A stretch of DNA of 54,235 nucleotides, the filler included, from Jimgerdemannia flammicorona (Eukaryota), in assembly GCA_003990765.1 (NCBI GenBank). It is 3 parts of 3 records of this genome, joined end to end, with 100 filler letters (N's around TTAATTAATTAA, not from the genome) between each part and the next. Parts side by side here need not be neighbours in the genome. Positions count along the whole stretch, not along the records: positions 18,115 to 36,125 come from RBNJ01002330.1; 2 more parts are not named here. One strand, written 5' to 3'. Under the pieces are notes generated by a model that ran no database searches, was not told the DNA's origin, and saw nothing but the letters and a program-made list of their open reading frames with translations. Positions 8,761 to 33,030 of the stretch are shown in pieces (position 1 is the stretch's first letter; every line of letters begins with the position of its first letter). The translations under genes and the position numbers were made by a program.

Positions 8761-8803
8761 TACTACTCTACACCACCTCAATAACCTGATCACCAGAACA
8801 CTG

Positions 8804-9210: not shown

Positions 9211-9424
9211 TAAGGCCCCAGCCTAACCTACTATGAGCAAAGAAGAACAATTCTATAAGAAAATTGAAAACAGATATGTACCTAGTGGCTGATGTCCCTA
9301 TGGCATTGGAATGTACTCTTCCTGAATGATCAATGATTGCTTCTCTTATATCAATGAACTGGCTCAGAGAAGAACCAACAGAAGGAAAACTCCTACCACT
9401 GAAATCACCACCATTGGATCAGAC

Positions 9425-10175
9425 AAACTGCTTACACTCTAAGCTTTTGTCAACTGAGCACCTGTCAAGATTATGATAGACAGTGGTACCTCAGACAACT
9501 TCATCAATGAAGAAACAGCCAACAGACTCAAAGTCTTCACCTCTCTGGTATAACAAACTCAAGCAGTTGCCACAGCTGATGGAACCTCCCATGTCATTAG
9601 TAAGGAAGTCTGCAATCTACCCTTCCGAATTGGCAACTACTGAGTACATGTTACCCTCCAGATCGTACCACTCTCTGATAATGAAATCATCCTTGGAACT
9701 CTATGGTTGAAACAAGAGAACCCCATGATTGATTGGGTAAACCATTCTCTGACCATCAAGAAAGGACACCACAACTTCAAACTGCAAGGTAAAAGGGACC
9801 CACTCAGCTCTAGCGACCCTGGACCAAAGATCACCTACATCAATAAGTTACAACTCAAGAAATTTGCCAAGAAATGCCCTCTCTTTGCTATCTCTATCTG
9901 CCCATCCAAAGGAGAATCTGAGAACTCTGAAGAAGACTTTTCCAAAGTTGACAGCCACATTAGACCCCTACTCCAGAAATTTCGAGACATATTCCCAAAG
10001 AAACTTCTGAAAGATCTACCTCCTAAGTGAGCAGTAGACCATGTCATCAAGACCATCCCAGATGCCAAGCCAGCCTTCAAGTCAATCTACCACATATTGC
10101 CAAGAGAAATTGATGTACTCAAGAAAGAAATTGACGAACTCCTAGAATAAGAATTCATCAGACCCAGTATATTAC
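9425..10175 (+). pseudogene. Family A aspartic protease and start of RT
   Basis: IMIDSGTSDNFI (DSG at 9479), IILGTLWLKQENPMIDW, DLPPK-AVDHVI, then FIRPS cut by the insertion. Confidence 0.88.
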
Positions 10176-12248
10176 TGTAAGCGCACAACCTCCAAGCCAC
10201 AGAATCACACGTCACCCTCTGAACAAGCCACTGAAATCACACATGACCTCTGAACAAATCTGGAAATCACCTGCAAGATCACAAAGCTGAGTCAAACCGA
10301 AGTCACAGCACACAAAGCTGAGTCAACATGAAGTCACAGAATACAAGATTCACACAAACAGAATCTTACCAATCAGGACCAAATGCATATATACTAAGCA
10401 TCGAGATGCATTGAAACAGAGAACCAAAACAAACAACAACCACAACTTCTGAATATATACAAACATAACCACCGAGATCTACAACCGCATCCATGCTGAC
10501 ATTTGGAATGCCATTGTCAACTGAGCCACACCCCCTCTGCCCCTCATGAATATCTATAGCCTGGCACCCCTCTATTTCGTGGAAGCCTGATGGAACACTC
10601 TGAACATACTTAACGAGGCCCACCAGATCAGATAAATCTCAAGCTACTACCAGATCAGCCACCTCCTAGAAGATATGGTTGAACACCACCATGACACAGA
10701 CATTACCCAGATGTCTCAATATCAGAAACTCATTGCCCGCAAACATCGAGTACTCCTTTATGAGTACAGCACCTTTATTTCCCACCTCAGAGTCACTACC
10801 AGCAAAATGGTTGCCACTCTGTCCTATGGCCAAATTGATGACATGATATAAGAACTCAACCACAAGTACCTCAAGTATGTTGAAACCACAGACAGAACCT
10901 TCCCACACCCTGATGACCACATCCTGCAAATGCCCCAAGTTGAATATGCCATGAAGGATGTCTATGATATAATCCAATTTGATGAAGATGAAGTAGAAGA
11001 CAATGATCCCTCTGATACTGATATGACCTTAAGCCAAGGATCTCTGCCAACTCTGATCACTCTGCCAACATTGCTGATGAACTTACAACAGTTCATAACG
11101 ACCTACGAGACTTATTGGGACAATGACTACTGGCATGAATACCAACCTGTGTTCACTCCCGATTACTTCAATTATAATGAAGAGACCAGAGAACACAACC
11201 TGTACCTTCAGACAACCCTTGACATTGAACCAACCACTCCACTATCTGAGTACGAGCATCATGAACCACAGCCGCCAGCCTACTACAACCCCATGACCCA
11301 TAGTGCTGTAACTTATAGAAGGTATGCAGATAGCGAATCCGATGAAAGCAAAGATGATATATCCCTCCTTCGCCCACCAACACCTTATCCAACATACAAG
11401 ATAGATGATGCTATCCTGTGGGATGGCGATGAAGTCCCAATGTATTATTACCTCAGTGAACAAGGAGAAGTAATTCACGAACCACTCTTCCTAGACAACT
11501 ATTTCATCAGAGATGATGCAATTGATGGTGATATCATCGAAGACTACCCAGACAGCATCTAAACCTATAAATAGCTTAGCAGTCATAGTATAGTTAGATT
11601 AGCCTTGTATGACATGACTGTGAACTGACTCAGCAGTCAGATAATCTCTTGACATGTCAGATCACACTTGTACTATGTGACTGCATTCTGACTCAGCAAG
11701 GCACTTAGTGCTATATCCATATCTATCATAGTCCAGATAGCCCCTCACTAGTATAAATACCCCCTTCTCCAGACCTCAGAATCTCAGACTTGAATACTTG
11801 AACAATCTGAATACAACTCCTGGGCACTTCTCCACAATATTCCTTTATACAACTACTCCTAGTATAGCAATATCATGAATAGCAAATAAACCTATTTAAT
11901 AACCCACAAACCACTCTTAAGTAAATCTGCTCCCCGTTAAATCCCACTCCTAACCCCATCACAAAATTTCCTAATTGGGTATTGTCTGCAGCGATACACC
12001 AATTCAACTAAGCTGGTCTTAGTTTCTTGAACTTCCTGAAATATGGAAAATCCTGAACATCCAGAACTAGTCTGAAATAGGACTTTGGTTGAGATGTCAA
12101 TCCGATCTTGAAATCAATAAGCATAGAGGATGTACTCCATATGAAATTGATCTTGATCATAAGAAAATAGTCTTCCAGAATATCCAGAACTTCCAGAAAA
12201 CCCTTCCAGAACTACGTAACAGTTACCCTAAAAAGCAACCCTCTTACA
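10176..12248 (+). repeat. Family A 5' LTR (2073 bp)
   Basis: 6-bp terminal inverted repeat TGTAAG/CTTACA, TATAAATA at 11752-11759, AATAAA at 11885-11890; direct repeat of 14516-16586. Confidence 0.96.
10465..11562 (+). pseudogene. U3-encoded ORF of the family A LTR (~365 aa reconstructed; novel N-terminal domain plus acidic tail)
   Basis: One frame from ATA 10465 (ATG in the 3' LTR) to TAA 11562. Four in-frame stops (10522, 10588, 10633, 10849), all explicable as C>T. Includes track ORF 10930..11562. Confidence 0.85.
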
Positions 12249-12263
12249 ACTTGGTAGCAGTGG

Positions 12264-14515: not shown

Positions 14516-16586
14516 TGTAAGTGCACAACCTCCAAGCCACAGAATCACATGTCACCCTCTGAACAAGCCACCAAAATCACACGTAACCTCCGAACAAATC
14601 TGGAAATCACCTGCAAGATCATGAAGCTGAGTCAAACCAAAGTCACAGCGTACAAAGCTGAGTCAACATGAAGTCACAGAACACAAGATTCACACAAACA
14701 GAATCTTACCAATCAGGACAAAATGCATATATACCGAGCATTGAGATGTATCGAAACAGAGAACCAAAACAAACAACAGCCACAACTTCTAAATATACAC
14801 AAACATGACCACCGAGATCTACAACCACATCTGCACTGATATTTGGAATGCCATTATCAACCAAACCACACCCCCTCTGTCCCTTATGAATATCCATAGC
14901 CTGGCACCCCTCTATTTTGTGGAAGCCTGATGGAATGCTCTGAATATGCTTAATGAGGCCCACCGGATTGAACAAATCTCAAGCTACTACCAGATCGGCC
15001 ACCTCCTAGAAGACATAGTCAAACACCACTATGATACAGACATTACCCAGATGTCTCAACACCAGAAACTCATTGCCCGCAAACATCGAGAACTCCTTTA
15101 CAAGTACAGTACCTTTATTCCCTGTCTCAGAGTTACTACCAGCGAAATGGTTGCCACCCTGTCCTATGGCCAAATCGACAACATGATACAAGAACTCAAC
15201 CACAAGTACCTCGAGTATGTTGAAACCACAGACAGAACCTTCCCGCACCCTGATGACCACATCCTGCAAATGCCCCAAGTTGGATACACCATGAAGGATG
15301 TCTACAATATAATCCAATTTGATGAAGATGAAAGAAGACAATGATTCCTCCGATGCTGACATGACCTCAAGCCAAAGATCCCTGCCAACTCTGATCACTC
15401 CGCCAATATTGCCGATGAACTTACAATAGTTCATAACGACCTATGAGACTTATTGGGACAATGACCACTAGCATGAATACCAACCTGCGTTCACCCCCGA
15501 TTACTTCAATTATAATGAAGAGACCGGAGAACACAACCTGTACCTTCAGACAACCCTTGATATTGAACCAACCACTCCACCACCTGAGTACGAGTGTCAC
15601 AAACCACAGCCACTAGCCTATTACAACCCCATGACCCATAGTGCTGTAACTTATAGAAGGTATGTAGATAGTGAATCCAATGAAAGTGAAGATAATGCAC
15701 TCCTCCTTCACCCACCAACACCTTATTCAGCATACAAGACAGATGATGCTATCTTGTGGGATGGTGATGAAGTCCCAATGTATTATTACCTCAGCGAACA
15801 AGGAGAAGTAATTCACGAACCACTCATCCTAGACAACTACTTCATCAGAGATGATGCAATTGATAGTGATGTCATCGAAGACTACCCAGACAGCATCTAA
15901 ACCTATAAATAGCTTAGTAGTCATAGTATAGTTAGATTAGCCTTATATGACATGACTGTAAACTGACTCAGCAGTCAGACGATCTCTTGACATGTCAGAT
16001 CACACTTGTACTACGTGACTGCATTCTGACTCAGCAAGGCACTTAGTGCTATATCTATATCTAGCATAGTCCAGATAGCCTCTCACTAGTATAAATACCC
16101 CCTCTCCCAGACCTCAGAATCTCAGACTTGAACACTTGAACAATCTGAATACAACTCCTGGGCACTTCCCCACAATATCCCTTTACACAACTACTCCTAG
16201 TATAGCAATATCATGAATAGCGAATAAACCTATTTAATAACCCACAACCCACTCTTAAGTAAATCTGCTCCCTGTTAGGTCCCACTCCTAACCCTATCAC
16301 AAAATTTCCTAATTGGGTATTATCTGCAGCGATATGCTGATTCAACTAAGCTAGTCTTAGTTTCTTGAACTTCCTGAAATACGGAAAATCCTGAACATCC
16401 AGAACTAGTCCGAAATAGGACTTTGGTTGAGACGTCAACCCAATCTTGAAATCAATAAGTGTAGAGGACATACTCCATATGAAATTGATCTTGACCATAA
16501 GAAAACAGTCTTCTAGAATATCCAGAACTTCCAGAAAACCCTTCCAGAACTATGTAACAGTTACCCTAAAAAGCAAACCTCTTACA
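14516..16586 (+). repeat. Family A 3' LTR (2071 bp)
   Basis: Direct repeat of 10176-12248; preceded by the PPT and followed by the TSD. Confidence 0.96.
14805..15900 (+). pseudogene. U3-encoded ORF, 3' LTR copy
   Basis: ATG 14805 MTTEIYNHI..., TGA at 14928, a 2-bp deletion near 15332 and further TAG stops. Track pieces 14946..15344 and 15631..15900. Confidence 0.82.
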
Positions 16587-16591
16587 ATTAC

Positions 16592-17446
16592 CTTATAGTG
16601 CACCAGTCCTCTTTGTTGTCAAGAAAGGAGGAGACCTATGAATGTGTATTGATTACTAAGACCTCAACAAACAGACCATCAAGAACTGTTACCCACTACC
16701 CAGAATTGATGAAATATTTGACAGGCTTACCAATACACAATTCATGAGCTCTTTTGACATACGAAATGGCTACTGGAAAATTGCCATGAAAGAAGAAGAC
16801 ATCTACAAGACAGCCTTTCAAACTTACTATGGACATTTCGAATTTCTGGTTATACTCTTTGGCTTAACTAATACTCCAGCAACCTTCTAGACTCTGATGA
16901 ATACTATCCTGTATCCATACCTGGACAAATTTATTGTTGTCTACATTGATGATATCCTAGTCTTCAGCAAAACCCTGGAGGAACATCTTGAACACCTTGA
17001 ACTAGTGCTACTGAAACTCTGAGAAAACTGACTCTTCGCAAAACTTAGCAAATGCAAATTTCTCCTGAAAGAAATCCAATTCCTTGGATATATTGTCACA
17101 CTGAATGGAATCACAAAATCTCCGCAATCAAGGATTGGCCCAGACCCAAGAAACTGAAAGACCTCCAGTCATTTCTAGGATTAGCAAACTATTATAGGCA
17201 ATTTGTTGCCAACTTCACCAAAATCACTACTGCCCTTACCCAAATGACCAAGCACAATAAGAAAGAAAAACAGTCCTGGACTATGAAATAAGAAAAAAAC
17301 TTCAAAAATCTTGTAAATTGGGGACCTGAACAAGATACAGCCTTTCAAACACTAAAAGATGCCTTGATAATCACTCCAGTACTTCAAGTGGCAAACCCTG
17401 CCCTACTATATGAAGTTACTACTGATGCCTCTGATCTAGCCCTTGG
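16592..17446 (+). pseudogene. Family A reverse transcriptase and start of RNase H (continuation of outer copy)
   Basis: [42 protein letters not shown] and VTTDASDLALG. Confidence 0.95.
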
Positions 17447-18014
17447 TGTAAGAGGGTTGCTTTTTAGAGTAACTGTTACGTAGTTCTGGAAGGGTTTTCT
17501 GGAAGTTCTGGATATTCTAGAAGACCATTTTCTTATGGTCAAGATCAATTTCATATGGAGTACATCCTCTATGCTTATTGATTTCAAGATCGGGTTGATG
17601 TCTCAACCAAAGTCCTTTTTTGGACTAGTTCTGGATGTTCAGGATTTTCTGTATTTCAGGAAGTTCAAGAAACTAAGACCAGCTTAGTTGAATTGGCGTA
17701 TCGCTGCAGACAATACCCAATTAGGAAATTTCATGACGGGGTTAGGAGTAGGACCTAACGGGGAGCGGATTTACTTAAGAGTGGTTTGTGGATTATTAAA
17801 TAGGTTTATTTGCTATTCATGATATTGCTATACTAGGAGTAGTTGTGTGAAGGGGTATTGTGGGGAAGTGCTCAGGAGTTGTGTTCAGATTGTTCAAGTC
17901 TGAGATTCTGAGGTCTGGGGGAGGGGGTATTTATACTAGTGAGGGGCTATCTGGACTATACTAAATATGGATGTAGCACTTAGTGCCTTGCTGAGTCAGA
18001 ATGCAGTCACGTAG
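17447..18014 (-). repeat. Family A LTR in reverse orientation inserted in RNase H (3' or solo LTR, cut by contig end)
   Basis: Reverse complement of the LTR end (TGTAAGAGGGTTGC...), matching ~11675-12248; no PBS follows it. Confidence 0.92.
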
Positions 18015-18114
18015 NNNNNNNNNNNNNNNNNNNNNNNNNNNNNNNNNNNNNNNNNNNNTTAATTAATTAANNNNNNNNNNNNNNNNNNNNNNNNNNNNNN
18101 NNNNNNNNNNNNNN
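18015..18114. other. Artificial contig spacer (44 N, TTAATTAATTAA, 44 N)
   Basis: Six-frame stop linker inside Ns. Confidence 0.97.
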
Positions 18115-20869
18115 GTGGTATGGGTCTGGCTTTCTGGTAGATAGGCTTGGTATCACCAGTGTCAACTTCATGGTAGTACTTGGGTTCTTGATTGTGGATA
18201 TCCCTAAAGTCTGTAGCAAGTACTCCTTCATTCTGGTGCAGAATCTTGAGAAGTTGTTCCTCCAGGGAAAAGTTTTCTCTAATGGTATATGTGTGCTTGT
18301 TCTGGTCCTTGTCTTTCTTGTGCTCGAGTTCGGTAATCTTGGTGGCAGCGTAGGCTCCTCTTCCAGTAGATCCAAAGCCTTGTTCTCCCCTCTTGGTCTT
18401 GATAAGTTCAGTGGCCTCTATGATCTTGGGCTTCTTGATTTCGTGGATCAGCATCTGGCCAATCCTGTCATGCTTCTTGACTTCAAAGGGGGTGGTGTAG
18501 TTGTGATTTCTGACTATGAGAAAAATCTCACCAGTGTAATCAGGGTCAATTACTCCTCCTTTAACTGAGATTTTGCTTTTGGCCAGACTGCTCCTGGTCT
18601 TGATAATTCTGGCATGGTTTTCTGGCAACTTGACTCCAATTCCAGTGCCAAGTAGGGTGGTGGTCTGTGGTTTGAGAGTAGCATTTTGGATGCTGGCAAG
18701 GTCCATTCCTATGGCTCCTTCAGTCTTGTATTCTGGGATCTTGGCTTTAGGGTGAAACTTCTTGACCTTGAGAGTGATGTCTGGTTCTTGTTCCTCCTCA
18801 TCGTCACTGTCAGCTTGAAGCTCTGGGGGCTGGTCATCTTCTTCGGCTTTCCTTTTTGTTTCGGCAGCTTCTTGCTCATGTTTCTGTTGGCGGATTTTCC
18901 TGACTTCACTAATATAGGACCAGCAGTCATTCAGGTGTTTGGAGCAGTACATCCTAGTACCATGGGGGCATCTTCCTTGAGGGGCATAGCCATCGATGAT
19001 CTTGTTGTACCACTGCTCATCTGTGAGCTTGGGTGTCTTGTTCTTGTTCTTGTTCACCGAGTGTATGAAGACCTCTGTGTCTTCTTCATCTCCTTCCTCC
19101 ATGTCTGGCAGGACTCCTTTATGGACATTGATAGAAACTCGTACCTTTCTCCCTCTGTAGTTGATCTGCATCTTCTGGGCATTGAGGTCAATGATGGCCT
19201 TGGCCTTGTGAAGCCATTGGTTGCCAATGAGGATGTCATAGTTGGTGGCGCTTATAACAATCACATCTACTAGGATGGTAGCTCCTCCTATCTTGATGGA
19301 GACTTCTCAGATTTTGCCAAGGGGGGTAGCTTGTGTACTGTCTGCTGTGACATAGACCATCTTGGTGGACTCTTCAATGTCCCAACCTAGGCGGTCAATT
19401 GCTTTCTTGCTCATGAGGCATCCTCCAGCACCAGTATCAATGATGGTATCAAAGATACAGTCTACGATCTAGCAGGGGATATAGGCTGATGTCTTGCGCT
19501 GGTCTTCAGATTCTTCACCTGAGTTCTCAGATTCTTCTTGTGCATTGTGAGCTTCTACAATCTTGTACTCTTAATTCTTGACAGTGGTTGCAAGTCCTAC
19601 TCTCAACTGTTGTCTGAAGGCAGGGACCTCAGCTAGCTGCCCAAAAGTGGCATTGACCTTCTGTTCCTTGAGGTCCTTGTAGATATCATACTGGTAGATC
19701 TTGGTCTTGCACAGCTTCTGTTCCTTCTTGCTCTCGCTTTCTCCTGAGACTGGAGTAGTGCCTTCGATAATTTGGCAGGCAGTCTCATCTAACTCCATAT
19801 CTTGATCAATCTCCTTGTGTTGGGTCTTGCTTTGAATAGTGACAGCTGGAGTCTTCTTTGGTCTTCTAACTGGCTTGCTGTTGCTCTTCTTATCATAGGG
19901 CTTGGACCGGGTTCTGGTACCTTCAGTAGCAGGGTAGAATTCGAGCTCCTCGTAATACTCTTCATCATCAGTGTCATCGATCTTCTTGATGACTACTGCA
20001 TTGGTTTGTTCTCTGGTTCTGCTAGTATTACTTGGTTGGGTTTTGCATCTTGTTTTGGTCATGCAATTCTTTGCATAGTGGCCTTCTTCTCCACATCGGA
20101 AGTATGTAATGTTATTGCATTCTTCTGTAGCAGCTGCAAATCTCTGCACTGGTCTCCTATTGGTGCTTCGGACTTCTCTAACAACATCACCAAGGTGTGT
20201 AGTCATCTTGGCAAACTGCTTGGCAAGTTCTTCCACTGGATCAGCTTTGGCTATCTTGGGGTTAGGTGGAGTTGGTTGTCTGTTTACAACTGTGGCAGGT
20301 AAGATACTAGTTGGCTTTGATGGCTCCATCTTGATGCCAGTTATTTTCTCCATTGAGTGTTTGGCAGGGTGTCTGGCTGTCTAATATCTCTGTGCAAAGA
20401 CCACTTTCTGATCAAGGGTCAGTGTAGCTGGGGTAGACCGGATTGCTAGGGCAATTTCAGAGTGAACTCCTTTAAGGAAGGTTGAATCCGCTATTTGTTC
20501 CTTGAGGCAGTCATCATAGCCAGCCAAGACAATCTGGTGGCAGTTTCGGGTATAGAATGAGTTGGGATCTTCACTAAGTCTCTGGCAGATAGTATTGAGT
20601 TGATCCTTGAGAGCTTGCTTGATCTCTTCAGTATAATATGTTGTTCTGAGGAAGGCCTTCATGTTGGCAAGTTTGGCTGCACCAGCATCAGCAATGGTGG
20701 CTGCATTGAACTTGTCTCTGGCAGGTCCTCTGAGGCTGACTGGTAGAAGGGCCAATTGAGCATCCACACCAAGGACTCGTATGGCGGTAAATTGTTCAAA
20801 GTCTTCAATGAAGGTCAGGATTGACTCTTCAGTAGTATATCTATAGAATGTGGGGGGATGCATTTCCAT
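18115..20869 (-). pseudogene. Family B gag-protease-dUTPase polyprotein with a few in-frame stops
   Basis: Track ORFs 20381..20869, 19571..20353 and 18059..19264 lie in one frame. dUTPase motifs AIGMDL, RSSLA, GGVIDPDYTGEI, RIGQ and RGEQGFGSTG at ~18357-18780. Confidence 0.9.
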
Positions 20870-20971
20870 CTTGTCTTGAATTCTTGCAGGGGTGACTCTT
20901 GTAGTCAGAGTAGTTGTTGTGGGGGTTGTTCGTTTTTCAGCTTGAAAGTGAGGGATTCATCTTGAATCACC

Positions 20972-20986
20972 AGCCAATGGGCACCA
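20972..20986 (-). promoter_or_regulatory. Primer-binding site of family B (TGGTGCCCATTGG; cognate tRNA not assigned)
   Basis: Starts TGG after a 3-nt spacer (ACT) following the LTR end, the same spacer as family A. Confidence 0.7.
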
Positions 20987-21295
20987 AGTTGTCACGTAGT
21001 GGTCGCTGAGTCCTTCAAATACGCCAGATTCTCTTCAAGGTATATCTCTTAGACTAACTCAAGTTGTTATAAGCAAGTTCTTATTGGAGTGCCTTCCCAA
21101 GATCTTATAGTCCTCAAACTTCTTATCTTTAACTGTCTTGTTATCTCTTAGATTGCTTGCAAGGAAGTGTGTATATTGCACTGAGAGGAACTGACTTTAT
21201 TTCAGAGAAAATAAGAGAGGTATTTATACAAAATATAATTCAATGGTTGCTAAGATATAAAGCTAAATATAAATTCTAATAACTAAAACTACTAA

Positions 21296-21435
21296 GTTCC
21301 AGGGCTGGCATTATTTAGTACCACATCAAAATACCAGTGCTGGAACAGTTTCACGTCACCTCAGAATACCAGTGCTAGCATTATCCAGTGTTACATGAGA
21401 ATACTGGTGCTGGCATTATCCAGTATAACAAAGAA
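21296..21435. repeat. Four 35-bp tandem units with near-palindromic core CCAGTGCTGG in family B U3
   Basis: Units start at 21296, 21331, 21366 and 21401; about five units in the copy 2 LTRs (~36350-36522, ~43540-43710). Confidence 0.8.
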
Positions 21436-21436
21436 C

Positions 21437-22291
21437 TTAGAGCAGAAAGTTCAGGATTATGGGAGCTTCGTCATCATCATCATTATCACTGAAGGATATG
21501 AGGTCTGCGAATTTGTCATATAGATCATACGTTTCGCATACTTCGCATGCCTCATCATGCAGTTCACGTGCTTCGGGTATGTCGTGCGGGATGATGTCAT
21601 CGATGACGTCATCACGTTCGGCTGTGGCGGGGAAGTCGGGAACAAGGTCTGGGGCTCTCCAGTCTATGAGGTTCTCTTTCACAAAATAGGGGACAAATGT
21701 GGGGTCTTGGGGAGATCTAACCCAGATGCTTGGGCCTTGGAATACTGAGATCAATCCTTGCAGGAATTGGTCTGGGTTGTTCTGAAGGATAGGGTACCAG
21801 AAGTCTTCTACTTTTTTGCTATTGAGGGTGATGGTGGACTGGGCTTCTGTAGCTACCCTGGCTTCTAGTGCATTGATATGGCAGGATGATAGGTCTCTGA
21901 AGTCTGAGACTCTAACATACTCCAAGTTGGGGATTGACCATGGTGCATGCCTGAAGATCTGATGGATCTTCTTTGCTGTCCTTGCCTCACGTAGGTCCAT
22001 GGGGGTGGCATCTTGTAGCTCTTGAGGGCTGGCCTGTGGGAACTCCCAGCAGAGGAGGTTTCCTATTTCGTACTCCTGCCACATTTGGAGGCATTCGGTG
22101 GCAATGGTGATCCTTGTTTCCATTTGACGGCGGTAGAGGATAAAGTAATAAGGGTCTGCAGTACCCAGGTTGATGCTAGGAGTCCTTCTTGAGCAGGTCC
22201 TCATGGCTCTTCTGATGTCTTGAAACATCCTTTCCTCGACTGAGATATCTTGATGATTCCTTGACCTTGAGGTTTGGCAGGCAGCAGGCAT
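21437..22291 (-). CDS. Intact U3-encoded protein of the family B LTR, 284 aa, unknown function (conserved N-terminal domain plus acidic tail)
   Basis: Open from ATG to stop entirely within the LTR and upstream of the TATA box. Hand alignment to the family A U3 ORF; decayed copies in the other two family B LTRs. Confidence 0.85.
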   Translation of the reverse strand: MPAACQTSRSRNHQDISVEERMFQDIRRAMRTCSRRTPSINLGTADPYYFILYRRQMETRITIATECLQMWQEYEIGNLLCWEFPQASPQELQDATPMDLREARTAKKIHQIFRHAPWSIPNLEYVRVSDFRDLSSCHINALEARVATEAQSTITLNSKKVEDFWYPILQNNPDQFLQGLISVFQGPSIWVRSPQDPTFVPYFVKENLIDWRAPDLVPDFPATAERDDVIDDIIPHDIPEARELHDEACEVCETYDLYDKFADLISFSDNDDDDEAPIILNFLL

Positions 22292-22532
22292 TTTGTTTGT
22301 AGTAAGTCTTTGAGCTATTTTGGGATTGGAGTTCTTGTTGGTTGCTGCTACTGTGGTTCCTTGATCCTTCTTTTATATTCTTCAGGATGCTTATGCTGTG
22401 GTCACAATGACTCACAGTTGGTCATCATTGCTCATCTCGTATACCATATGATCTTCTTGTACTCTGATCTGGTGGCTTGTAAAGAAAGGCTGTCTCCTGT
22501 GCTGATGTCATCATTCTGGGGTCACCATTACA

Positions 22533-24682
22533 ATAACTATAACTATTAGTTGAAAATTCTATAGAAATTTTCATAGAAATTTCATTAGAAATTTCAGTAG
22601 TTTTATAGATATATAATGATTCATTATATTAAGTATATTTAAATTTTATTAAAATATGAGTTATATATAAAGCTTAAGAAGTGTGAATTTTCAAAAAATA
22701 AGTTAAATATCTTAGCTATATTATTTCTGTATAAGAAATTCAAATAAACTTATATAAGATAGAAATAATTCAATAATGATCTAAATCAGTAAATCTCATA
22801 TATAAGGTCTACTAATACTATATTAAGTTCTAAATTGAGATAGCTACTTAATCAGAAATTAGACATAATTAAAAAGAATAGATTATTAAATATCAGATCT
22901 CTTATATATTGATAACTATTACTAAGTAAGTTTATAAGTTATTTAAGAATGATAAATCAGTCTTAGTCTATTTTTACAGAGTAATATTAGGTGATTATAT
23001 ATAAATAAGAAGGCTTTATTGAGAATATAATAATTTCTTAGTTATATCTTAATTATAGTATTTTTTATTTCTTTTTAGTTTTTTCTTATCTATTTTTAAA
23101 TATTTCACAATATTCCACTATCTTCTAAATACTTAGAAATCCTCTCTTAGTATCAAAACTTCACTAGAATATTCTTATCTTATTTTAGCATCAAGTATCT
23201 TATTTTAGCTAGTTATAGAATTTTTTAAAATATTATAAGATTCTATTACTTATCTTTATTAAAAACTATTCTTTTGGCTTTTCTTTTTATTTTTAAGATT
23301 CTTCTAGATCTTTTTTTTAGATCTTATAAATATTCTCTTTTTCTACTTAAATAAAGTTTAGTTTATTTTTTTCCAAAAAATCTTCAAGACTACTTATATT
23401 TATAAGTATCTTTTTAAGCTACTTTAAGTTTACTAGAACTTTCCTGATTAGCTATTTTCTTTTAAAGAAATTAGAACTATTATAGAAAAAATATAATTAT
23501 ATAAATCATATAGTATAAGAATATATAGCTTATAGAAGCTTGAGAGTTTAAATAAAATATCTCAGAGATGAGATTATCTATTTAGGAGAAAGTTATAATA
23601 GGTGATCTAAATTAGAAATAAAAATTAGATGATAAATATTTAATTATAATATCTGAATCTAATATCTAATATAGTATAGTATTATAGTTAGCAGTTACTC
23701 AATCTTATAGATATAAGAATCTTATAATTATAAGAATCTTATACTTATAAGAACTTATAAATTATATTAAGGATCTTATAGAAAAAGAAGTTCTAACTTA
23801 ACTAATATAGCTAGCAAACTTATATAAATATCTTCAGTATCTAAAATAAATAAACTATAGATTAAAATAGTTCAAAGATAAAAAAACAAGAGAACTAATA
23901 AGTCTGTAAATAGATATACTTTGACCTTACTCACTTCTGTACTCTTGAGAACTCTGAGGAGTTAAAGAAGATCAAGTTTTCAAAATAAAGAAATCTGCTA
24001 CACTTCTAAGGTTAAGTATCTACTATATTATAATATATTATATAATATATCACTAGTAGATATAATATTATTAGATAATAATAATTACTCTTTATAAGAT
24101 TTGAATATCTAACTACTAAACTTTTAGTTCTTATCTTATTAAATTTTGACTAAATATAATTATTCTTATATAATTTTAAAATTTAATAAGAATATTTATT
24201 TTAAAAAGAGAGATATAATAATTTCTTTAGTTATAGCTTATTTTTATATTATTTTTCTATTCTTTCTTAAATATTTCATAATGTTCTAATATTTTTTTCT
24301 TTCTTAGTATTAAGACTTTATTAGAATATATATTTTCTTAATACTAACTATCTTATTTTAGTTAGTTATAGAATCTACTAAAATATTTTAAAGCTTTATT
24401 AGTTATCTTTTACCAAGACTACTTTCTTAGTTTTTTATTTTATTTCTAAGATTCTTTCAGATCTTTCTTTTAGATCTTATATAAATATCTTTTCTGTCTA
24501 CTTAAATAAAGCTCAGATATATATTAATTATAATTTTTAGCTATAAAAATTTAGAGATCTGAATATTTTATAAACTTTTAAAACAAGCTGATGAATTTCT
24601 CAAGTAAATATAAAATAGTTTAGAAGAAAACTACTAGAATAGATGATTTATTAAAACTTTATGAAGAGATGATTTTCAATTC
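22533..24682. mobile_element. Extremely AT-rich eroded repeat relic, possibly a TIR DNA transposon
   Basis: Essentially no CpG, TpA-rich, no ORFs. Internal direct repeat ~23030-23360 / ~24218-24515; weak inverted similarity between ~22548-22605 and ~24625-24682. Confidence 0.5.
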
Positions 24683-24857
24683 ACACACCTTCATGCCCGA
24701 CAGAAAAATGGTAACGCACAGCAAAATCCAGAACCCATCACCATAAAAACTGCCTTCCCCCGAAAGGAGCCATTGTGCCGTTTACACCATCTATACCCAC
24801 ACAGACATCGCACATTAATTAGCATCTGCGGGCATTTCCAGTATGGCACAGCAAGGG

Positions 24858-24892
24858 CTCGTGGTAAGTTGGGTCCTTCCAGATGTCGGCTG
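24858..24892 (-). pseudogene. Scrap of BTB-SPRY exon 1 (DIWKDPTYH)
   Basis: Matches SIWKDPTYHD of the cluster genes. Confidence 0.55.
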
Positions 24893-25423
24893 TGGGATAA
24901 TTCAAAATTATTCTGTTTTGATCTGAGTCGTGATGCAGCATTTGAGCAGCTGATAACAGAAGGCTGTCTTTTTTTTTTTTTTTTTTTTTTTTGGTTGCTA
25001 AAGTAGATCTTGATGTGAAAGAGAATGTGTGTATGTGCTGAAAATTAAGCCAAGGTTCCAGAGCTCCCTTCAACTCCATCTAGTAAAACAGAAATTTGAA
25101 CCTTCAAACATTCATTGGAAATGCTAGCATCGATCCCAGGCCAAGGATCGGAGGTATTTCAAACTGTATGGGATATAGGGTTGGATTTTGACATTCTTGG
25201 TTCTGGATCGAATGTATGACGTTTAATCACACAGAACTCGGGTATTCTGAAACAGGACAATTTGTTGTGTTCACATTCACATAGAAGATATGACAGACAC
25301 AAATCACTACAGCTACAACATATAATTACAGTTCATGAAGTTACAGCATTGAATTTAATACAGAATGATAATAATATTCACTTATTAAGTTAAGAGTAGA
25401 TGAACCATCCATGACCTCATCAT

Positions 25424-26936
25424 TCAGCCTCGAAGCGCTTTTATCCGGTACTTGGATTGTAAACGTAAGCCCACGGCAGGGTACACCTTATTGGGGAGAT
25501 TGCTCCAAGCTGTTCCGTAATTGAATCCGTTGATCGAAAGGGCGCAAGTATGGTCATTCCGGTTTAAATGCAAGGTTATGACATCGCCGTTTGCAATTTG
25601 TTTTCCGTATTTACGAATATCATTTCCAGCCATCGTACGTTGGGCGCCATCCCAGGATTGGAAACACCATGCAGATGGCTTAGCTCCCATATGACAATTA
25701 AAATGTGTAAATTCCTCTCCAACTAAACCGATCTCACAGACTTGCGATCCAATGAATTCAACAACAATGTCCCATTCGCATAGCTCATTGTGAACCATCG
25801 TCCCGGGAGCGGAAAGCCGTGCTGTGCTATAATTGTAACTCCCCGATGGAAGCTCCACAACCTGGCCATCTTCCGAAACAACCACTTGAGAGCCGATTTT
25901 AGTTCGATCCCACTGAAGATTGACATTGTGACGCGCCTTTCCGCGATTTGCAGACGGGTGCCCTGTAGGGCATACGGTGTTCTTGCAGGCGTGATGGCAA
26001 AATGCCATGTAGTGTGGAGAGGTTTCCGCAAACGTGTCGGCTGCTTCCGCGAGGGTCTTGAGTCGATGTGGGCAGACGAGTGTGAGGTCAAAGTGGCTCA
26101 TCATTTTGAGCAGCAAAGCGCGCGACGCACCATCTCCAAGCCGGATCGTCCCGTCGCACCCCGTAACCATATCGTTAATGTCATGGAGAACTGCATGGCG
26201 CTCCGAAGCCGACGGCGCGTTATCGTTGCGTCCCCAAACCCAGTCGACGACGCACAGCAATAATTCGTGCTCGGATGTGGAAAGGGGCATTGCCTCGGTG
26301 AGGAGCAGCTCGAGGGCCTCTTCGGAGAGATCAGTCAGCTCACCTATGGCGAGCTTGTGAGAGCGGAAGGGGTTGAAGAGCACGTCGTAGAGGTCCTTGT
26401 TGGCTTCGCTCCAGGGGATAGCGGTGACGGCTTCGTTGAGAAGCGATGAGGCAACACCAAAATCAGCAAGGTCGTACGCTCGCTCCAGTACCATTTTCAT
26501 GAGCTTGGGGAGGAAGAGAAAGTTTGCTGCGCGATATATTCCTACCGCGATGGAAATGTTGACAGCGTTGTCGATGGTTTCAGTGTGAATGAAACCGAGG
26601 ACGATGTTGAATACCGCAGAGGTGATATCGTTGAGGACGACACGTTGAGAGGAACCCTCGTGCATGTTTCCGTACAGCATCGCCTTAAAAACTGGGCATC
26701 TTTTAAGAGAACATATAAAATCAGATGTATGAAAAGTATCGAAAACGATGACACAACTAAACTGTATAAAATTATCAAAATCGGACAAACCTTGAAGCTA
26801 GCACAGCACGGCATGCGCCCAGCTCGACGCCGTCGGCGCAGACGATGGTCACGTCGTGGTAGGTTGAGTCCTTCCAGATGGAAGCGATGTCGTCCTTGAG
26901 GTTAAGACCGCTCTCTGATTGCTCGACCATGTTCAT
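25424..26936 (-). CDS. BTB/POZ plus B30.2/SPRY domain protein, copy 1 (2 exons, 473 aa, intact)
   Basis: Exon 1 26936-26791 (YHDVTIVC...ACRAVLASR), GT-AG intron 26790-26700, exon 2 26699-25424. BTB motif CPVFKAMLYGNM; SPRY motifs EWDIVVE, IGLV, GDVITLHL and VYPAV. Total 1422 nt, divisible by 3. Confidence 0.92.
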
Positions 26937-27169
26937 AAAAGTGAGAGAAATAAAGAGTTTTGTTTGGGAAGGTTGAGGTTGAGGTGTGGTTTCGGCTGCG
27001 GAAAGAGTTCCTTTGTTTTTATATCTAAATCGTGGCGCAGCTTTGACAAGGTTTATATTGTCAAAGTGACCGAAGCCATTTTCGCAGAGCGTATTGATGA
27101 CGTTTACATGATGACGTAGTCAGGCTGCGGCTGCGCCACCACATATCGAGTTGCTATAACTAAGATATT

Positions 27170-27597
27170 TCAACACCATTTTCATGAGCTTGGGGAGGAG
27201 GAGAAAGTTTGCTGCGCGGTATATTCCTACCGCGATGGAAATGTTGACGGCGTTATCGATGGTTTCGGTGTGAATGAAGCCGAGCACAATGTTGAGCACC
27301 GTGAAGGTGATATCATTGAGGGCAACGCGCTGAGAGGAGCCCTCTTGCATGTTTCCATATAACATCGCCTTGAAGACTGGGCATCTTTTAAGTAACCACA
27401 TAAAATCAGGCATGGAAAAGGTGCACGAAAAACGACGAACACAACTGTGTAATTGAACAAACCTTGAAGCCAGTACGCACGGCCTCGACACCGTCAGCGC
27501 AGACAATGGTCACATCGTGGTAAGTTGCGTCCTTCCAGATGGAAGCGATGTCGTCCTTGAGACTAAGACCGATGTCGGATTGCTCGACCGTGTTCAT
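27170..27597 (-). pseudogene. BTB-SPRY copy 2, 3'-truncated (BTB only)
   Basis: Exon 1 has a small deletion after GVE; exon 2 homology stops after LMKMVL. Confidence 0.82.
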
Positions 27598-28179
27598 AAA
27601 AGCGAGTGAAATAAAGAGTTTTGCTTAGGCTGAGACGTGATTTCGACTGCAGTAAGAATTTCTTGTTTTTATATCTAATTAAATCGTTGAGAAGCCAATT
27701 CGGCGGCAAGCTCCTTCGTATGTGCAAATGTCGAAATGTTTACATCATTGTTCCAGCACATAATAATGGAGTGTATTGTGGACCATCCAACTCAACGCAT
27801 CGTATCGGGATGCCACGCCTCGAGATTACAATTACCAAATTGTAGTGCAATATCCAAAACGGTATTTCTACTATTCAAATGTTCATTAGAGATGCTAGTT
27901 TTGGGTTTTGGCTAGTAATTCGGCCCCGCCTTCAGCACTTAATGGATCGGAGTAGTTTGTGCTGCGTGGAGTGTGCGCTGAATTTCTATCCAGGTTCTGA
28001 ATTGCATATATTAGAGCTTGTATATAGACTTACATGCAGAAATTTACTTTTAATATCTTACTTAAGGTGAATATAAAGAACAATGCGAAAATGTGAAGAC
28101 GTTACAAAGTAGACTTTGAAGCAGAATAATAACTATTGCTAAGCTAAAAGCAGATGAACCATTCTTGACCGCATCGACA

Positions 28180-30154
28180 ACCCCCATCCGATACTTCGAT
28201 CCTAACCATAAGGTCACGGCAGGGTACACCTTGTCGGGGAGATTGCTCCTGGCTGTACCGTAATTGATTCCATTGATTGAAAGAGCACATGTATGTTCAT
28301 TTAGGTTTAAATGCGAGGTTACGATATCGCCATTTTTAATTTTTTTTGCCGTATTTACTTTTGGTTCTTTCAACCATCGTATATTGGTCGTTGGTATCGA
28401 AGCAGGAGGTCCATCCATATGGCTTCGTTGCCATGGATCTATCAAAATATCTGAATTCCTCTCCAACGACCCCCATCATTAAGTTCAATGGATTCAACGA
28501 CAATGTCCCAATCGCATAAACCGTTGTGAACCTTCATCCCGGAGACAGAAAGCCGTGCAGTCTGTTATGTCAATATCGAAGTTCCCCATGGAAACTCCAC
28601 AACCTGGCCATCTTCCGAGACGATCACTTGAGAACCAATTTTCGATCGATCCCACTGGAGACTGCCATTGTGATTTGCCATTCCGCGACTTTCGAAAGGA
28701 TGACCCGTAGGACATACGGTGTTCTTGCAATCGTGGTGGGAAAACGCCATGTAGTATGAGAGGTCTCCGCAAACGTGTCGACTGCGTCTGTGAGGACTTT
28801 GAGTCGATGCGGACAGATGAGCGTGAAGTCAGAGTGATTCGTCATTTTAAGCAGCAAGGCACGCGACGCTCCATCTCCCAACCGGACAGTATCGTCCCGT
28901 AACCATGTTGTTGACGTCATGCAGAACAGAACGGTGCTTCGAAGCCGACGGCGCGTTCTCGCTATGTGCCCAGACCCAGTCGACGACGCCCAACAATAGG
29001 TCGTGCTCGGGAGTGACAAGGGTCGCTGCCTTGGTGAGGAGCACCTCGAGGGCCTCTTCGGAGAGATCAGTTAGCTCACCGATGGCGATATTGTGAGCGC
29101 AGAAGGGATTGAGAAGCGCGTCGTAGAGGTTTTTGTTGGCTTCGCTCCAGGTGATGGCGGCGACAGCTTCGTTGAGAAGCGATGAGGCGACACCAAAATC
29201 AGCGAGGTCGTGCGTGCGTTCCAGCGCCATCTTCATGAGCTTTGGAAGGAGTGGAAAGCTTGCTGCGCAATATGTACCCACCAATATAGTTATGAACGTA
29301 GTTCAAACTTCGGCAAAGTGGCCGAACCGCGGACATTCATGCAGTTGCGCAAATTAGTTTCCTCGCAACCTAAGCATCTTAAGATGGCATAAGTCTCAGT
29401 TTACGCCAGTTTCGCCCCGTTGCAATTTAAATGCTAGCACCAGTTTCAGTACCTGTTTCGTTTCGCACCCGTTCAATTTAAATGTTAGCGCTAGTTTTAG
29501 TTTAGCACCTGTCTTTTAGTTTGCCCCGCTGGATCTATCTACATCCAAGATGGGTGCTTCGCCAGTTAAGCTGTAGCAATTGTAATCCTTTTACGCATCC
29601 CTCCCGCCCATTCCCCTGTCAAAATATAAATGCTCGGCCTCTTCGCGCAGAAGCACGAATGGCGGGCCTTGGAAGCGTTTTTACGCTTCATACAAGCCAA
29701 ACCCATGTTGCGCCGTGTTCTCGTCCTTCTTTTCTTTTCTCTCCCTTTGATTAAGTTGGGTTTCTTTTCGCAGTTATTTGGACATTTTACGCGTAAGGAC
29801 ACTTTGCGACGGAAATGTTGACGGTGTTGTCGATGGTTTCGGTGTGAATGAAGCCGAGGACAATGTTGAGTACCGCAGAGGTGATATCGTTGAGGACGAC
29901 GCGAGGAAGCCTCTCGCATATCTCCATACAGTATCGCCTTAAATAATGGGCATCTTTTAAGAGACCGCATGAAATTAGGTGTGTGGAAAGTAAGAGAATC
30001 GAAATCGGACAAACCTTGAAGCCAGTACGACACGGCACGCGCCTAGCTCGACACCATCAGCGCAGACGATGGTCACATCGTGGTAGGTTGAGTCCTTCCA
30101 GATGGCGGCGGTGTCGTCTCTGAGATTAAGACCGCTGTCGGAATGCTCGGCCAT
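28180..30154 (-). pseudogene. BTB-SPRY copy 3, frameshifted and split by a ~520-bp insertion
   Basis: 5' part 30154-29806 and 3' part 29282-28180 resume at adjacent codons (NISVA / VGTYCAASF); several frameshifts. Confidence 0.85.
29283..29805. mobile_element. Non-coding insertion in BTB-SPRY copy 3, possible MITE-like element
   Basis: Absent from paralogues. Imperfect inverted pair GCAAAGTGGCC (~29313) / GGACACTTTGC (~29797); internal repeat CAATTTAAATG(C/T)TAGC twice. No clear TSD. Confidence 0.4.
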
Positions 30155-30854
30155 GTTTATAAAGCGAGAAAAATAAAGGAACAGTGAGGTGTAATTTCGG
30201 TATATATCTGAATCGTGGCGCAGCTTTGCGTTACGATGGGTGAATCGTCGTCAGCGCAGTATTTTATTTGCACGGACAGTTGATAAGTTATAAAAACGCA
30301 ACGTTTCACCAGTTTGTGTGTTCCCTGGAATGTCTACGCCCTGCCGAGAAATTTCGCCACTGTATTGATTGAAGATCAGTGTTTATTATTGCCATATAAT
30401 TATATACGAAATTATCAACTCCGTCTAATAAAATATATCCAACACAGAGTTTCGACTTCTCAATTGTTCGCTGGAAATGCTAATCTTGGTTAAGGCCCAG
30501 CCAGGGCGCCTTCAGCGCTTATGAATGTACCATTGGAGTTTGACGTCCCTGATTCTGGAATGTAAAATCACAGCTGCGAGCTCGAATATGACGATGAATA
30601 TCATAAAGCAACATCGCATGCATGTCACACTTTGCTATACATGTACTTGTGTATATGGTACCGCGTACCGGTACTGAAAGTTGGTGATGAAGAAGCAAAA
30701 TTTATTGATAACATTCAATCGCCGTTTAGACAACGGCACTACCTAAAGATATCACAGATTATAATTGCTATAGCTACAATATATACAGTGCATAAATATG
30801 TTACAAACAGTTTGATACAGAACGATGGCAGTATTTGTATTAGCGATGGACCAT

Positions 30855-32357
30855 TCATGACCTTATTATTCGGTCTCTGCGATCTTTTATCCGATACTTG
30901 CAAAGATGGCATAAGGTCACAGCAGGGTACACCTTTTCGGGAAGATTGGTCCAGGCTGTCCCGTAATTGATTCCGTTGATCGAAAGGGCACAGCTGTGAT
31001 CATTTATATTTAAATGCAAGGTTATGACATCGCCATTTTGAATGTGGCTGCCATAAACATGAGAGCTTCTTCCATTAAAAGTACGATGGCCATTGTTGTA
31101 GGATTGAAAACCCCATGTATACGGCTGGTTGGTCATGTAACTATCAAAATATGTGAATTCCTCTCCAACGAGCCCAATCACACAGGCGCCTTGGGTGCCA
31201 AGTGATTCAACGACAATGTCCCATTCGCACAAATCGTTGTGAACCTTCGTGCCGGGAACAGAAAGTCGTGCGGTCTGTATCGAACCTCTTGACGGAAGCT
31301 CCACAACCTGGCCATCTCCCGAAACGACCACTTGAGAGCCGATTTTCGATCCATCCCACTGGAGATAGGCCCTTCCGCGACTTGCGGAAGGATGACCTGT
31401 AGGACATACGGTGTTCTTGCAGGCATGGTGGCAAAACGCCATGTAGTGAGGAGAGGTTTCCGCAAACGTGTCGACTGCTTCCACGAGGGTCTTGAGTCGA
31501 TGCGGACAGACGAGCGTAAGGTCAAAGTGACTTATCATTTTGAGAAGCAAGGCGCGCGACGCTCCGTCTCCCAGCCGGACAGTTTCTTCGCACCCCGCAG
31601 CCATCTCGTTGATGTCGTGCAGAACAGAACGGCGCTCCGAAGCTGACGGCGCGTTATTGTTACGTGCCCAAACCCAGTCGACGACGCACAACAATAAGTC
31701 GTGCTCGGACGTGGCAAGGGTCGATCCCTCGGTGAGGAGCAACTCGAGGGCTTCTTCGGACAGATCCGTCAGCTCGCCGATGGCGAGCTCCTGAGTGCGA
31801 AATGGGTTGAGGAGCACGTTGTAGAGGTCCTTGTTGGCTTCGCTCCAGGGGATGGCGGTGACGGCTTCGTTGAGAAGCGATGAGGTGACACCAAAATCAG
31901 CGGGGTCGTGCGCCTTTTCCAGCACCATCTTCATGAGCTTGGGGAGGAGGAGAAAGCTTGCTGCGCGATATATTCCTACCGCGACGGAAATGTTGACAGT
32001 ATTTTCGATGGCTTCGGTGTAAATGAACTCGAGGACAATGTTGAGCACCGCGGAGGTGATGTCTTTGAGGACGACGCGATGAAACGAACCCTCTCGCATA
32101 TTTCCGTACAGCATAACCTTGAAGACTGGGCATCTTTTATAAAATCAGGTGTGGAAAGTGTCATCAAAAAAGGCGGACACAATTAAACTTTGTAAGAGAA
32201 TCTGAATTCGGGCAAACCTTGAAGCCAGTACGGCACGGCACGCGCCTAGCTCGACACCGTCAACGCAGACGATAGTCACGTCGTGGTAGGTTGGGTCCTT
32301 CCAAATGGAGGCGATGTCGTCCCTGAGGCTAAAACCGCTGTCGTAGTGCTCGACCAT
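30855..32357 (-). CDS. BTB/POZ plus B30.2/SPRY domain protein, copy 4 (2 exons, 472 aa, intact)
   Basis: Exon 1 32357-32218, GT-AG intron, exon 2 32133-30855. Total 1419 nt, divisible by 3; same motifs as copy 1. Confidence 0.92.
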
Positions 32358-33030
32358 GTTTGTAAAAGCGAGAGAAATAATGGGAAGGTTGGGATTTCGG
32401 CTGCGGAATAATGTCTCTGTATATACATACAAATCGTGGCGCAGTGTTGGTAAGGTTAGTGCTTCGATCGACAATAGAAACCTATCGCATAGACTTATTT
32501 ATTGAACACACATTTGTATGTGAAAAACGGTTGAGAGGTCTACATCGTCGACCCAGCACATAGAAAGAAAAGTGCACTGTGGAGCATCCGACGCAACGCA
32601 TCGCACGGCGATGCCACGCTTTGACGCTTAGCGCCGCAGGTCGATTTACATTGTTCCCGTGGGTAGTCCATGTGATATAATGATCAAATTAGGAATACGT
32701 GCTCCTACATTCGTTACCCATGAATTTGACGATCAGTGTTTGTTACAACTCCACCTAGAAGAATATATCCAAACCGGATTTTTACAATCTAACGATTATT
32801 GGAGACACTAGTCTTGGTTTAGCTATCAGCTGCCTTCAGAATGTTCCATTGGATTGACGTTTCTCAACAACGCTAATTAAAGATAGTAGACACGAGTCAT
32901 TAATTAATTGCTATGGTTACAATATATACAGCTCACGATAATACAACATAGGCTTTGGTACGGATGATGACGGTATTCATGTGTTTATTTTACTAAGCCA
33001 AGAGCAGATGGACCATCCATGACCTCATCA

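Follow-up and report, generated by a model that had tools for sequence, protein, structure and literature searches.

Can a retrotransposon's long terminal repeat (LTR) hold a conserved protein-coding gene? The question is raised by a 54,235-nt stretch of DNA from Jimgerdemannia flammicorona (assembly GCA_003990765.1), here called the window, in which two families of Ty3/Gypsy elements, A and B, carry an open reading frame (ORF) inside their LTRs, intact over 284 codons in one copy of family B. Accessory genes in U3, the upstream part of the LTR, are a textbook trait of a few complex retroviruses, and LTR retrotransposons are generally viewed as vehicles for gag and pol, with LTRs that serve regulation alone. 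The reading towards which we lean is that these two distant, dUTPase-carrying families house a sense accessory gene in the LTR, with a proposed promoter of its own, whose product would act in trans as a regulator or adaptor.

The window consists of three contigs placed end to end, with linkers (44 N, TTAATTAATTAA and 44 N) at 18015-18114 and 36126-36225. Contigs on either side of a linker need not adjoin in the genome and, because the window is joined in this way, several elements end abruptly at contig ends. Elements were mapped by self-comparison of the window with blastn and by Pfam scans of read-through frames (Table 1).

Reading frames inside the LTRs of two Gypsy families

The intact family B ORF (P0001) begins 241 nt into its LTR and ends 209 nt before a TATAAATA TATA box. 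The B LTR is present three times in the window, with blastn extents of 21170-22535, 36230-37530 and 43418-44751. The initial annotation, like the first blastn extent, would put the LTR end at 21170; this had to be given up, as 21170 is merely where the 3' LTR meets the contig linker. The end was moved to 20990 because the junction of family A recurs there and because public contigs diverge there. The LTR starts TGTAATGG, in the 3' copy with its TG immediately after the purine tract caggaggaaga, and ends in ...GACA, followed by ACT and the primer-binding site (PBS)-like TGGTGCCCATTGG. The resulting ACA/ACT/TGGT junction is the same motif as the LTR end plus PBS of family A, where the LTR end is defined by a target-site duplication (TSD), and contigs from public sequencing runs cease matching the window at 20989/20990 and 22532/22533, which are both ends of the B LTR. 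The ORF thus lies wholly inside the LTR, as had been claimed. The same frame was found in 3/3 B LTRs and is intact in one of them; in both LTRs of the full element (B2) it is interrupted by W/Q-to-stop changes.

In family A the initial annotation had described an ORF of about 365 residues in the same position. The frame was indeed found in both full A LTRs, and it is broken in both; its tail is also preserved in an outer LTR remnant. These two LTRs (TGTAAG at the start, TTACA at the end, with TG...CA termini) bound an internally deleted element nested within the reverse transcriptase (RT)-coding region of an outer A element and flanked by a perfect 5-bp TSD, ATTAC; RT and RNaseH of the outer element resume beyond it at 16592-17450 (RVT_1 at 16621-17098). 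The A ORF begins 289 nt into the LTR and ends 190 nt before the main TATAAATA box. Intact pieces of the A protein exist in public data. Where ORF copy 1 has its first three stops, P0014 (128 aa, 84% identity to A) carries R, R and Q, so these stops were read as CGA>TGA and CAA>TAA changes. P0007 (247 aa; the C-terminal 69%) is 66% identical to A.

Both families have the hallmarks of Ty3/Gypsy elements: direct LTRs with TG...CA ends, a PBS, a polypurine tract (PPT), a TSD in the inner A element and, in B2, the order protease (PR)-RT-RNaseH-integrase. That they are distinct families, as first proposed, is borne out by the absence of any blastn match between their LTRs, an RT identity of 33% over 190 aa, PBSs that diverge after TGGT, and an opposite gene order, with dUTPase before PR in A (8828-9770, plus strand) and PR before dUTPase in B (18116-19306 and 39771-41000, minus strand). 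The dUTPase was recognised in both families at E values of 1e-22 to 1e-27 (Pfam). Family A contained PR, RT and RNaseH, its integrase lying beyond the contig end, and the degenerate B2 copy gave no Chromo domain match at E<=0.001 in Pfam. The available part of a fungal Gypsy survey describes dUTPase-bearing elements from basidiomycetes and Tuber and a variable position of dUTPase in pol, including between PR and RT (PMC2864245), and three retroelement lineages of bdelloid rotifers carry dUTPase, according to the portion available of that report (PMC5408684).

In each family the ORF starts roughly 240-290 nt into the LTR and, as the initial annotation had recognised, is sense to the element and stops upstream of a TATAAATA box. 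Because it ends upstream of this box, the ORF is placed in the presumed U3, a boundary set from motifs. The whole frame sits within the LTR, and each of the two LTRs of one element has a copy, so it is not of the type of extra ORF that occurs in the internal region.

The LTR frame as a gene under selection

A word-indexed search of 5.8 billion proteins returned five relatives of the B protein with 58-84% identity, and an exhaustive profile search of 1.84 billion representatives gave six matches at E<=1e-3, five of them true, reaching down to 27% identity. Relatives of the B protein include P0009 (E 2e-44, 42% identity), P0010 (342 aa, E 8e-36, 37%) and P0011 (200 aa, E 3e-11, 27%). P0012 (E 1.2e-4) is a low-complexity repeat protein; it was rejected as a relative and left out of the alignments. 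P0006, which has an aberrant C-terminus, was likewise left out of alignments A4 and A6, and P0008 stands for its lineage. None of the public relatives has a name; their contigs, 0.9-4.8 kb long, belong to JGI/IMG or ENA metagenome assemblies. Scans of viral contigs with alignment A6, P0007 and P0010 gave no matches.

A metagenome scan found a single locus, L001 (1535 nt), with an intact ORF of 291 aa (P0013) that is 44% identical to B. Comparison of B with L001 gave dN 0.63 and dS 1.70 for non-synonymous and synonymous change (NG86), a dN/dS of about 0.37, and identities of 48/65/44% at the three codon positions, the second being the most conserved. Within the B family, in-frame insertions and deletions are restricted to an acidic linker, and intact relatives at 27-90% identity lie on separate public contigs. 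Among the 40 best-supported of 580 contig variants, 30 fell inside the ORF (run X1), at codon positions 1/2/3 in the numbers 14/2/14, with 14 synonymous and 14 non-synonymous codons. A search of the 1535 nt of L001 for an LTR start or internal-region sequence found neither. A 33-nt motif, 82% identical between positions 170-202 and 1481-1513 of L001 and 1311 nt apart, flanks the ORF there and may act as an enhancer or point to LTR units in tandem.

The copies in the window tell less. Comparison of the second B copy (B1) with the two B2 LTRs gave 47/122 and 54/110 synonymous changes, for which the mutation spectrum expects 42.9 and 38.2; the signal of selection is weak here, which is to be expected because the copies are dead. 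Differences between copies, both in B1 against B2 (18116-22535 and 40358-44751) and in the A LTR pair, are 94-96% transitions concentrated at CpG and CpA, and B2 is the more mutated copy, with C>T at 211 and G>A at 125 positions; in the reverse direction the counts are 64 and 44. From this bias we concluded that the copies are decaying by C-to-T mutation, in a manner that looks like repeat-induced point mutation or methylation-driven change.

Together, the sequence comparisons show a gene under long-term purifying selection that lies inside bona fide LTRs in both families, and the proposal in the initial annotation that selection has kept it can be upheld on the intact relatives, the dN/dS against L001 and the codon-position identities. 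We consider it very probable, on this evidence, that the frame is a real, selected gene inside the LTR.

Relationship between the A and B proteins

The initial annotation had aligned the A and B proteins in two gap-free blocks. Direct comparison with BLASTP was not significant (E 0.25-0.35), with the two best segments collinear; this part of the claim did not stand as a pairwise result, and the register was recovered by profile comparison. With eight B rows against four A rows, hhalign gave P 0.028, which improved to 9e-4 on the addition of divergent B members and to 1.6e-4 (probability 50%, 19% identity) on the addition of P0013 and P0014. The register stayed constant as sequences were added, matching B 21-147 with A 8-132 over 124 collinear columns.

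The hhalign score was calibrated by shuffling because the profiles are shallow. Shuffling of the A columns gave a mean score of 14.3 (standard deviation 2.5, maximum 22.3), with 0/150 shuffles reaching the observed 36.9, and reversed profiles scored 18.4 and 17.6. When the N-terminal 140 columns were shuffled the maximum was 21.0, and 0/120 shuffles reached the observed 35.4, making 0/270 in total. The element's own Gag, an unrelated helical control, scored 15.0 (P 0.38), and a relation of the LTR ORF to Gag was rejected. Predicted helices of A and B roughly coincide under the alignment; the C-terminal halves of the two proteins do not align. From these profile comparisons we regard the N-terminal domains of A and B as probably homologous.

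An orphan protein with an acidic tail

The two proteins appear to have in common a helical N-terminal domain of about 125 residues and long acidic tails rich in hydrophobic or aromatic residues. P0001 begins with a basic N-terminus (8 K/R in residues 1-45), continues with a predicted helical domain (about 47-185) and a hairpin (200-212), and closes with an acidic tail (217-284) ending DLISF...EAPIILNFLL. Across the B family a conserved N-terminal region is followed by a very conserved core (142-215), a variable acidic linker and a conserved DLISF...EAPxxLNFLL end. The tails were as acidic and aromatic as first described: residues 216-284 of B contain 22 D/E among 69 residues against 3 K/R, together with the conserved DLISF and LNFLL motifs, and residues 160-365 of A contain 47 D/E and 30 F/W/Y among 206. 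In the AlphaFold model of B the helical core has a predicted local distance difference test score (pLDDT) of 60-83 and the acidic tail falls below 50. An acidic, hydrophobic-studded region that is predicted to be disordered is thus present, as in activation domains, judged from composition and model only.

Searches against described families found no counterpart. At E<=1 neither the A nor the B ORF matched a family in Pfam, where no known DNA-binding family matched the LTR ORF proteins; the Sag, Nef and Tas/Bel families of Pfam matched 0/10 B-family members at E<=5. A weak match to ATG5_HBR (E 0.088, in 2/10 B-family members) was dismissed as noise. A sequence profile search of the PDB gave no match at E<=1. 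Foldseek, which the initial annotation had suggested running on an AlphaFold model, gave a best E of 1.7, and in VIA-align wide no Z reached 5, the highest being 4.2, for a query model of mean pLDDT 57; no clear match to a described fold emerged. We assigned neither a fold nor a DNA-binding domain because both models are weak. The ESM Atlas ranked an unnamed cluster first, at 0.92; recognition was under the threshold, so this match offered no lead. By these searches the proteins would form an orphan family of about ten public members that matches no described domain or fold. Their shape, basic at the N-terminus, helical in the body and acidic in the tail, fits a transcriptional activator or an adaptor in general, and would agree with the transactivator suggested in the initial annotation, which also named an anti-silencing factor.

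Promoter motifs and a proposed mode of action

A candidate promoter lies upstream of the ORF in each family. In B it comprises a TATAAAAG box preceded by TGAGTCA, and in A a TATATAC preceded by two TGAGTCA sites, a heptamer that we take to be of the AP-1/Gcn4 type. L001 likewise has TATAAAAG 81 nt before its ATG, and B and L001 share a conserved stretch directly before the ATG.

Based on these motifs, we propose that the ORF would be driven by a promoter of its own, situated within the first ~200 nt of the LTR, with a TATA box 77-86 nt before the ATG and heptamers upstream, and that its mRNA would end at the poly(A) signal of the LTR. If the ORF has its own promoter and uses this signal, it follows that any LTR copy, be it 5', 3' or solo, would amount to a small gene complete in itself. 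The protein would serve the element in trans, either regulating it or acting as an adaptor; in one version, the helical domain would bind and the acidic tail would recruit host machinery to the downstream LTR promoter. To the first of these steps, the separate promoter, we give somewhat less than even weight. That the protein is a transcriptional regulator in particular seems to us unlikely. We also think it somewhat unlikely, as a wider speculation, that the LTRs are autonomous cassettes of promoter, ORF and terminator for a new class of retrotransposon regulator, kept since a common ancestor or exchanged between lineages.

Three public runs were compared as contigs, whose depth is flat along their length. 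Run X1 had a depth of 63-9870 over LTR bins and 0-3.4 over internal bins, and run X3 a depth of 0.66-70 throughout; because contig depth is flat and the kind of run is not established, these values were not taken as expression. Joints among the contigs at 21282-21431 skip 68-143 nt and reflect differing copy numbers of the U3 repeat. These joints, and one at 21391>21602, were rejected as introns and read as copy variants because they have non-canonical ends and lie in the U3 repeat and tail zone.

Weighing of alternative explanations

The plainest alternative is that the frame is a chance opening or a functionless dead relic in an LTR that is merely long. It would account for the four of five full LTR copies in the window that are broken and for the want of a Pfam, PDB or named relative. 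It would leave unexplained the survival of intact ORFs (200-342 aa) in relatives of 27-44% identity, the dN/dS of 0.37, the second codon position being most conserved and the linker indels staying in frame, and we hold it to be very improbable. A gene could also be real in each family and yet not be the same gene, if different genes came to occupy the same LTR position or if a shared helical bias and convergent acidic tails mimic kinship. The non-significant BLASTP result, an hhalign probability of only 50-61% at 19% identity and the failure of the C-terminal halves to align speak for such an origin; shuffled maxima of 21-22 against observed scores of 35-37, the stable register, the score of just 15 for unrelated helical Gag, and the likeness in LTR position and overall layout speak against it, and we find it quite unlikely. 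Several points nevertheless weigh against the reading that we prefer. The profiles behind the 50-61% probability are shallow (effective sequence numbers of about 2 and 1.3) and the structure models are weak (mean pLDDT 57 and 55). The LTR context is seen for the window copies alone, the other members lying on their short contigs of at most 4.8 kb, and the window copies reflect mostly neutral decay, the synonymous excess after correction for the mutation spectrum having p 0.25 and p 0.0014. As for the TATA boxes and heptamers, they are short sequences; the window as a whole shows no enrichment of TGASTCA (17 found, 11.8 expected), and the promoter and regulator steps derive from motifs and composition only.

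How the gene is expressed admits two further explanations. If the downstream TATAAATA drives the genomic RNA, the ORF would lie in U3 and so occur only at the 3' end of that RNA, downstream of integrase, which is where a retroviral-style gene would be expected: the message would be a spliced subgenomic mRNA from the main LTR promoter, or would start from an internal promoter in pol, and only the 3' LTR copy would be used, like nef, sag or tas. According to the part of the rotifer study available, LTR elements typically express their extra ORFs through spliced mRNAs (PMC5408684). Against this stand the TATA box that is conserved in both families and in L001 at 77-86 nt before the ATG and, weakly, the failure to find a leader-to-ORF joint among the contigs of the three public runs, a search confined to contigs and to a reference without the 3' LTR; we rate such expression as unlikely. 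The upstream TATA box could instead be the only promoter of the element, with the ORF as the first cistron within a very long R region (about 1.1-1.5 kb) that is repeated at the 3' end of the RNA. This would agree with the conserved TATA box and 5' leader that immediately precede the ORF, and with the AATAAA downstream of it. Both families have, however, a second and better TATAAATA box between ORF and LTR end, with upstream repeats or TGACTCA; a 5'-proximal ORF that has A at -3 and runs for 284-365 codons would, under a scanning model, be expected to block translation of gag; and an R region of this length would be unusual. We therefore consider this arrangement improbable, and continue with the reading in which a sense accessory gene with its own promoter resides in the LTR.

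Features of the window and neighbouring sequence

The coordinates of the elements, LTRs and motifs are collected in Table 1.

Table 1. Mapped features of family A and family B elements in the window (boxes and heptamers are motif matches).
Feature	Position	Strand	Remarks
LTR ORF of B1 (P0001)	21437-22291	-	intact, 284 aa, ATG to stop
B LTR, 5' LTR of the copy cut by the contig end at 18115	20990-22532	-	1543 nt; TG...CA ends
TATAAAAG box	22370-22377	-	86 nt upstream of B ATG; in 3/3 B LTRs; candidate ORF promoter
TGAGTCA	22408-22414	-	upstream of B TATAAAAG box; kept in 3/3 B LTRs
Short tandem repeats in U3	21300-21425	-	between B ORF stop and downstream TATA box; public contigs differ in copy number
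TATAAATA box	21221-21228	-	motif; presumed promoter of genomic RNA
AATAAA	21196-21201	-	after B TATAAATA box
PBS-like TGGTGCCCATTGG	20974-20986	-	3 nt past B LTR end
Second B copy (B1)	18115-22532	-	5' LTR, gag, PR, dUTPase; cut by contig end
Full B element (B2), degenerate	36226-44748	-	LTR pair and internal region
B2 5' LTR	43232-44748	-	ORF remnant 43712-44506 with stops
B2 internal region, degenerate	37531-43231	-	Pfam: gag (CCHC)-PR-dUTPase-RT-RNaseH-integrase
B2 3' LTR, cut by contig end	36226-37530	-	PPT caggaggaaga before; ORF remnant 36524-37288 with stops and one shifted stretch
Outer A element	6033-10175	+	5' LTR remnant, gag, dUTPase, PR, RT start; interrupted by inner element at 10176
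Outer A 5' LTR remnant	6033-6766	+	last ORF codons and stop near 6085
Outer A dUTPase; PR	8828-9209; 9419-9770	+	Pfam
Inner A 5' LTR	10176-12248	+	2073 nt; TSD ATTAC 10171-10175
Two TGAGTCA	10288, 10319 (copy 2: 14628, 14659)	+	motif; upstream of A TATATAC
TATATAC	10388-10394 (14728 in copy 2)	+	77 nt upstream of A ORF start; candidate ORF promoter
A LTR ORF copy 1	10465-11562	+	~365 codons; 3 internal stops (CGA>TGA twice, CAA>TAA); ATG lost
TATAAATA boxes after A ORF	11566 and 11752-11759	+	two TGACTCA sites between them (11626, 11689); LTR end 490 nt past the second box
AATAAA	11885	+	downstream of A TATAAATA boxes
A PBS TGGTAGCAGTGG	12252-12263	+	3 nt past 5' LTR; junction ...TTACA/ACT/TGGTAGCAGTGG
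A LTR ORF copy 2	14805-15900	+	ATG kept; 1 stop, frameshift near 15341, then further stops
Inner A 3' LTR	14516-16586	+	PPT aagaaggggagag before; TSD ATTAC 16587-16591 after

Beyond these elements, an inverted fragment of the A LTR (17447-18014) adjoins a contig end. The region 1-5500 has a GC content of about 50% and an extreme strand bias, with a GC skew of -0.43 to -0.49 and a C-rich plus strand; its sole match was a weak RVT_1 on the minus strand at 1222-1653 (E 1e-4, under the Pfam cut-off), and it may be another retroelement, heavily mutated. In the region 25382-34553 (minus strand), about four units of about 2.1-2.7 kb that have diverged to 72-80% identity form a tandem array, each unit encoding a BTB/POZ and SPRY protein; long open frames remain at 25427-26797 (457 aa) and 30858-32144 (429 aa), and the rest of the units are in fragments. 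Positions 23000-25000, located between the B LTR and this array, are strongly AT-rich (GC 20-25%) and hold an internal repeat (23021-23356 and 24208-24511, 72% identical).

Comparison with known systems and significance

By layout, the closest known counterpart of the LTR ORF appears to be sag of mouse mammary tumour virus (MMTV), followed by spumaviral tas/bel and lentiviral nef. Like the frames described here, sag is a complete sense ORF inside a long (>1 kb) U3, so that every LTR has a copy; it has been called the 'LTR ORF', and a second promoter within the MMTV LTR has been reported. Sag comes from a vertebrate retrovirus and is a type II membrane glycoprotein, whereas the present protein is predicted to be helical with an acidic tail and belongs to an env-less Ty3/Gypsy element. 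The spumavirus tas/bel1 and lentiviral nef genes are also accessory regulators at the 3' end that overlap U3, and Tas is a transactivator with an acidic activation domain, expressed from an internal promoter. These genes start upstream of the LTR and merely overlap it, unlike the present case, in which the whole gene and its candidate promoter lie inside, and they have no sequence match to the present protein in Pfam or the PDB.

Among retrotransposons, the brtn gene is said to lie antisense in its Botrytis element. Accessory ORFs comparable to ours in being carried by fungal and other Gypsy elements include brtn of Boty/BcGypsy1 (bioRxiv 10.1101/2021.04.13.439636), ORF3 of bdelloid rotifers, which lies downstream of pol and has types common to unrelated retroelement lineages (PMC5408684), and an unspecified 'add. 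ORF' in the fungal Gypsy survey of Novikova et al. 2010 (PMC2864245); in the parts of these sources available, none is described as inside an LTR. The fungal dUTPase-bearing Gypsy elements of that survey (Postia placenta PosPlaTy3, Phanerochaete, Tuber Tmt1) have dUTPase at varying places in pol, among them between PR and RT as in family B; family A has its dUTPase before PR, and the available text of the survey mentions no LTR gene (PMC2864245). ORF0 of the rice elements Retrosat2, RIRE3 and RIRE8, which are Gypsy elements with LTRs of about 3 kb, is similarly an extra, fast-evolving Gypsy ORF of obscure function that is common to related families at low identity, as far as the available part of its description goes; it differs in belonging to a plant and in lying outside the LTR, between the 5' LTR and gag-pol (PMC3485330), a comparison made by description only. 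A literature search whose coverage left out most subscription journals yielded no report of a sense ORF inside a Gypsy LTR, fungal or other, and novelty is thus unproven. What would be new here is an accessory gene in the presumed U3 of env-less Gypsy elements, encoding an orphan protein family.

These elements carry a conserved protein gene in duplicate in every element, and possibly in every solo LTR. LTRs could thus be protein-coding units, and gene and repeat annotation pipelines mask LTRs by default. The two families would offer a tractable case for how retroelements gain and keep regulators, and add an orphan protein family with a testable link to retrotransposon control. If the proposed role is correct, an env-less retrotransposon would possess the 'complex retrovirus' trait of a U3-encoded, trans-acting factor, and solo LTRs left behind by recombination would keep supplying that factor to active elements.

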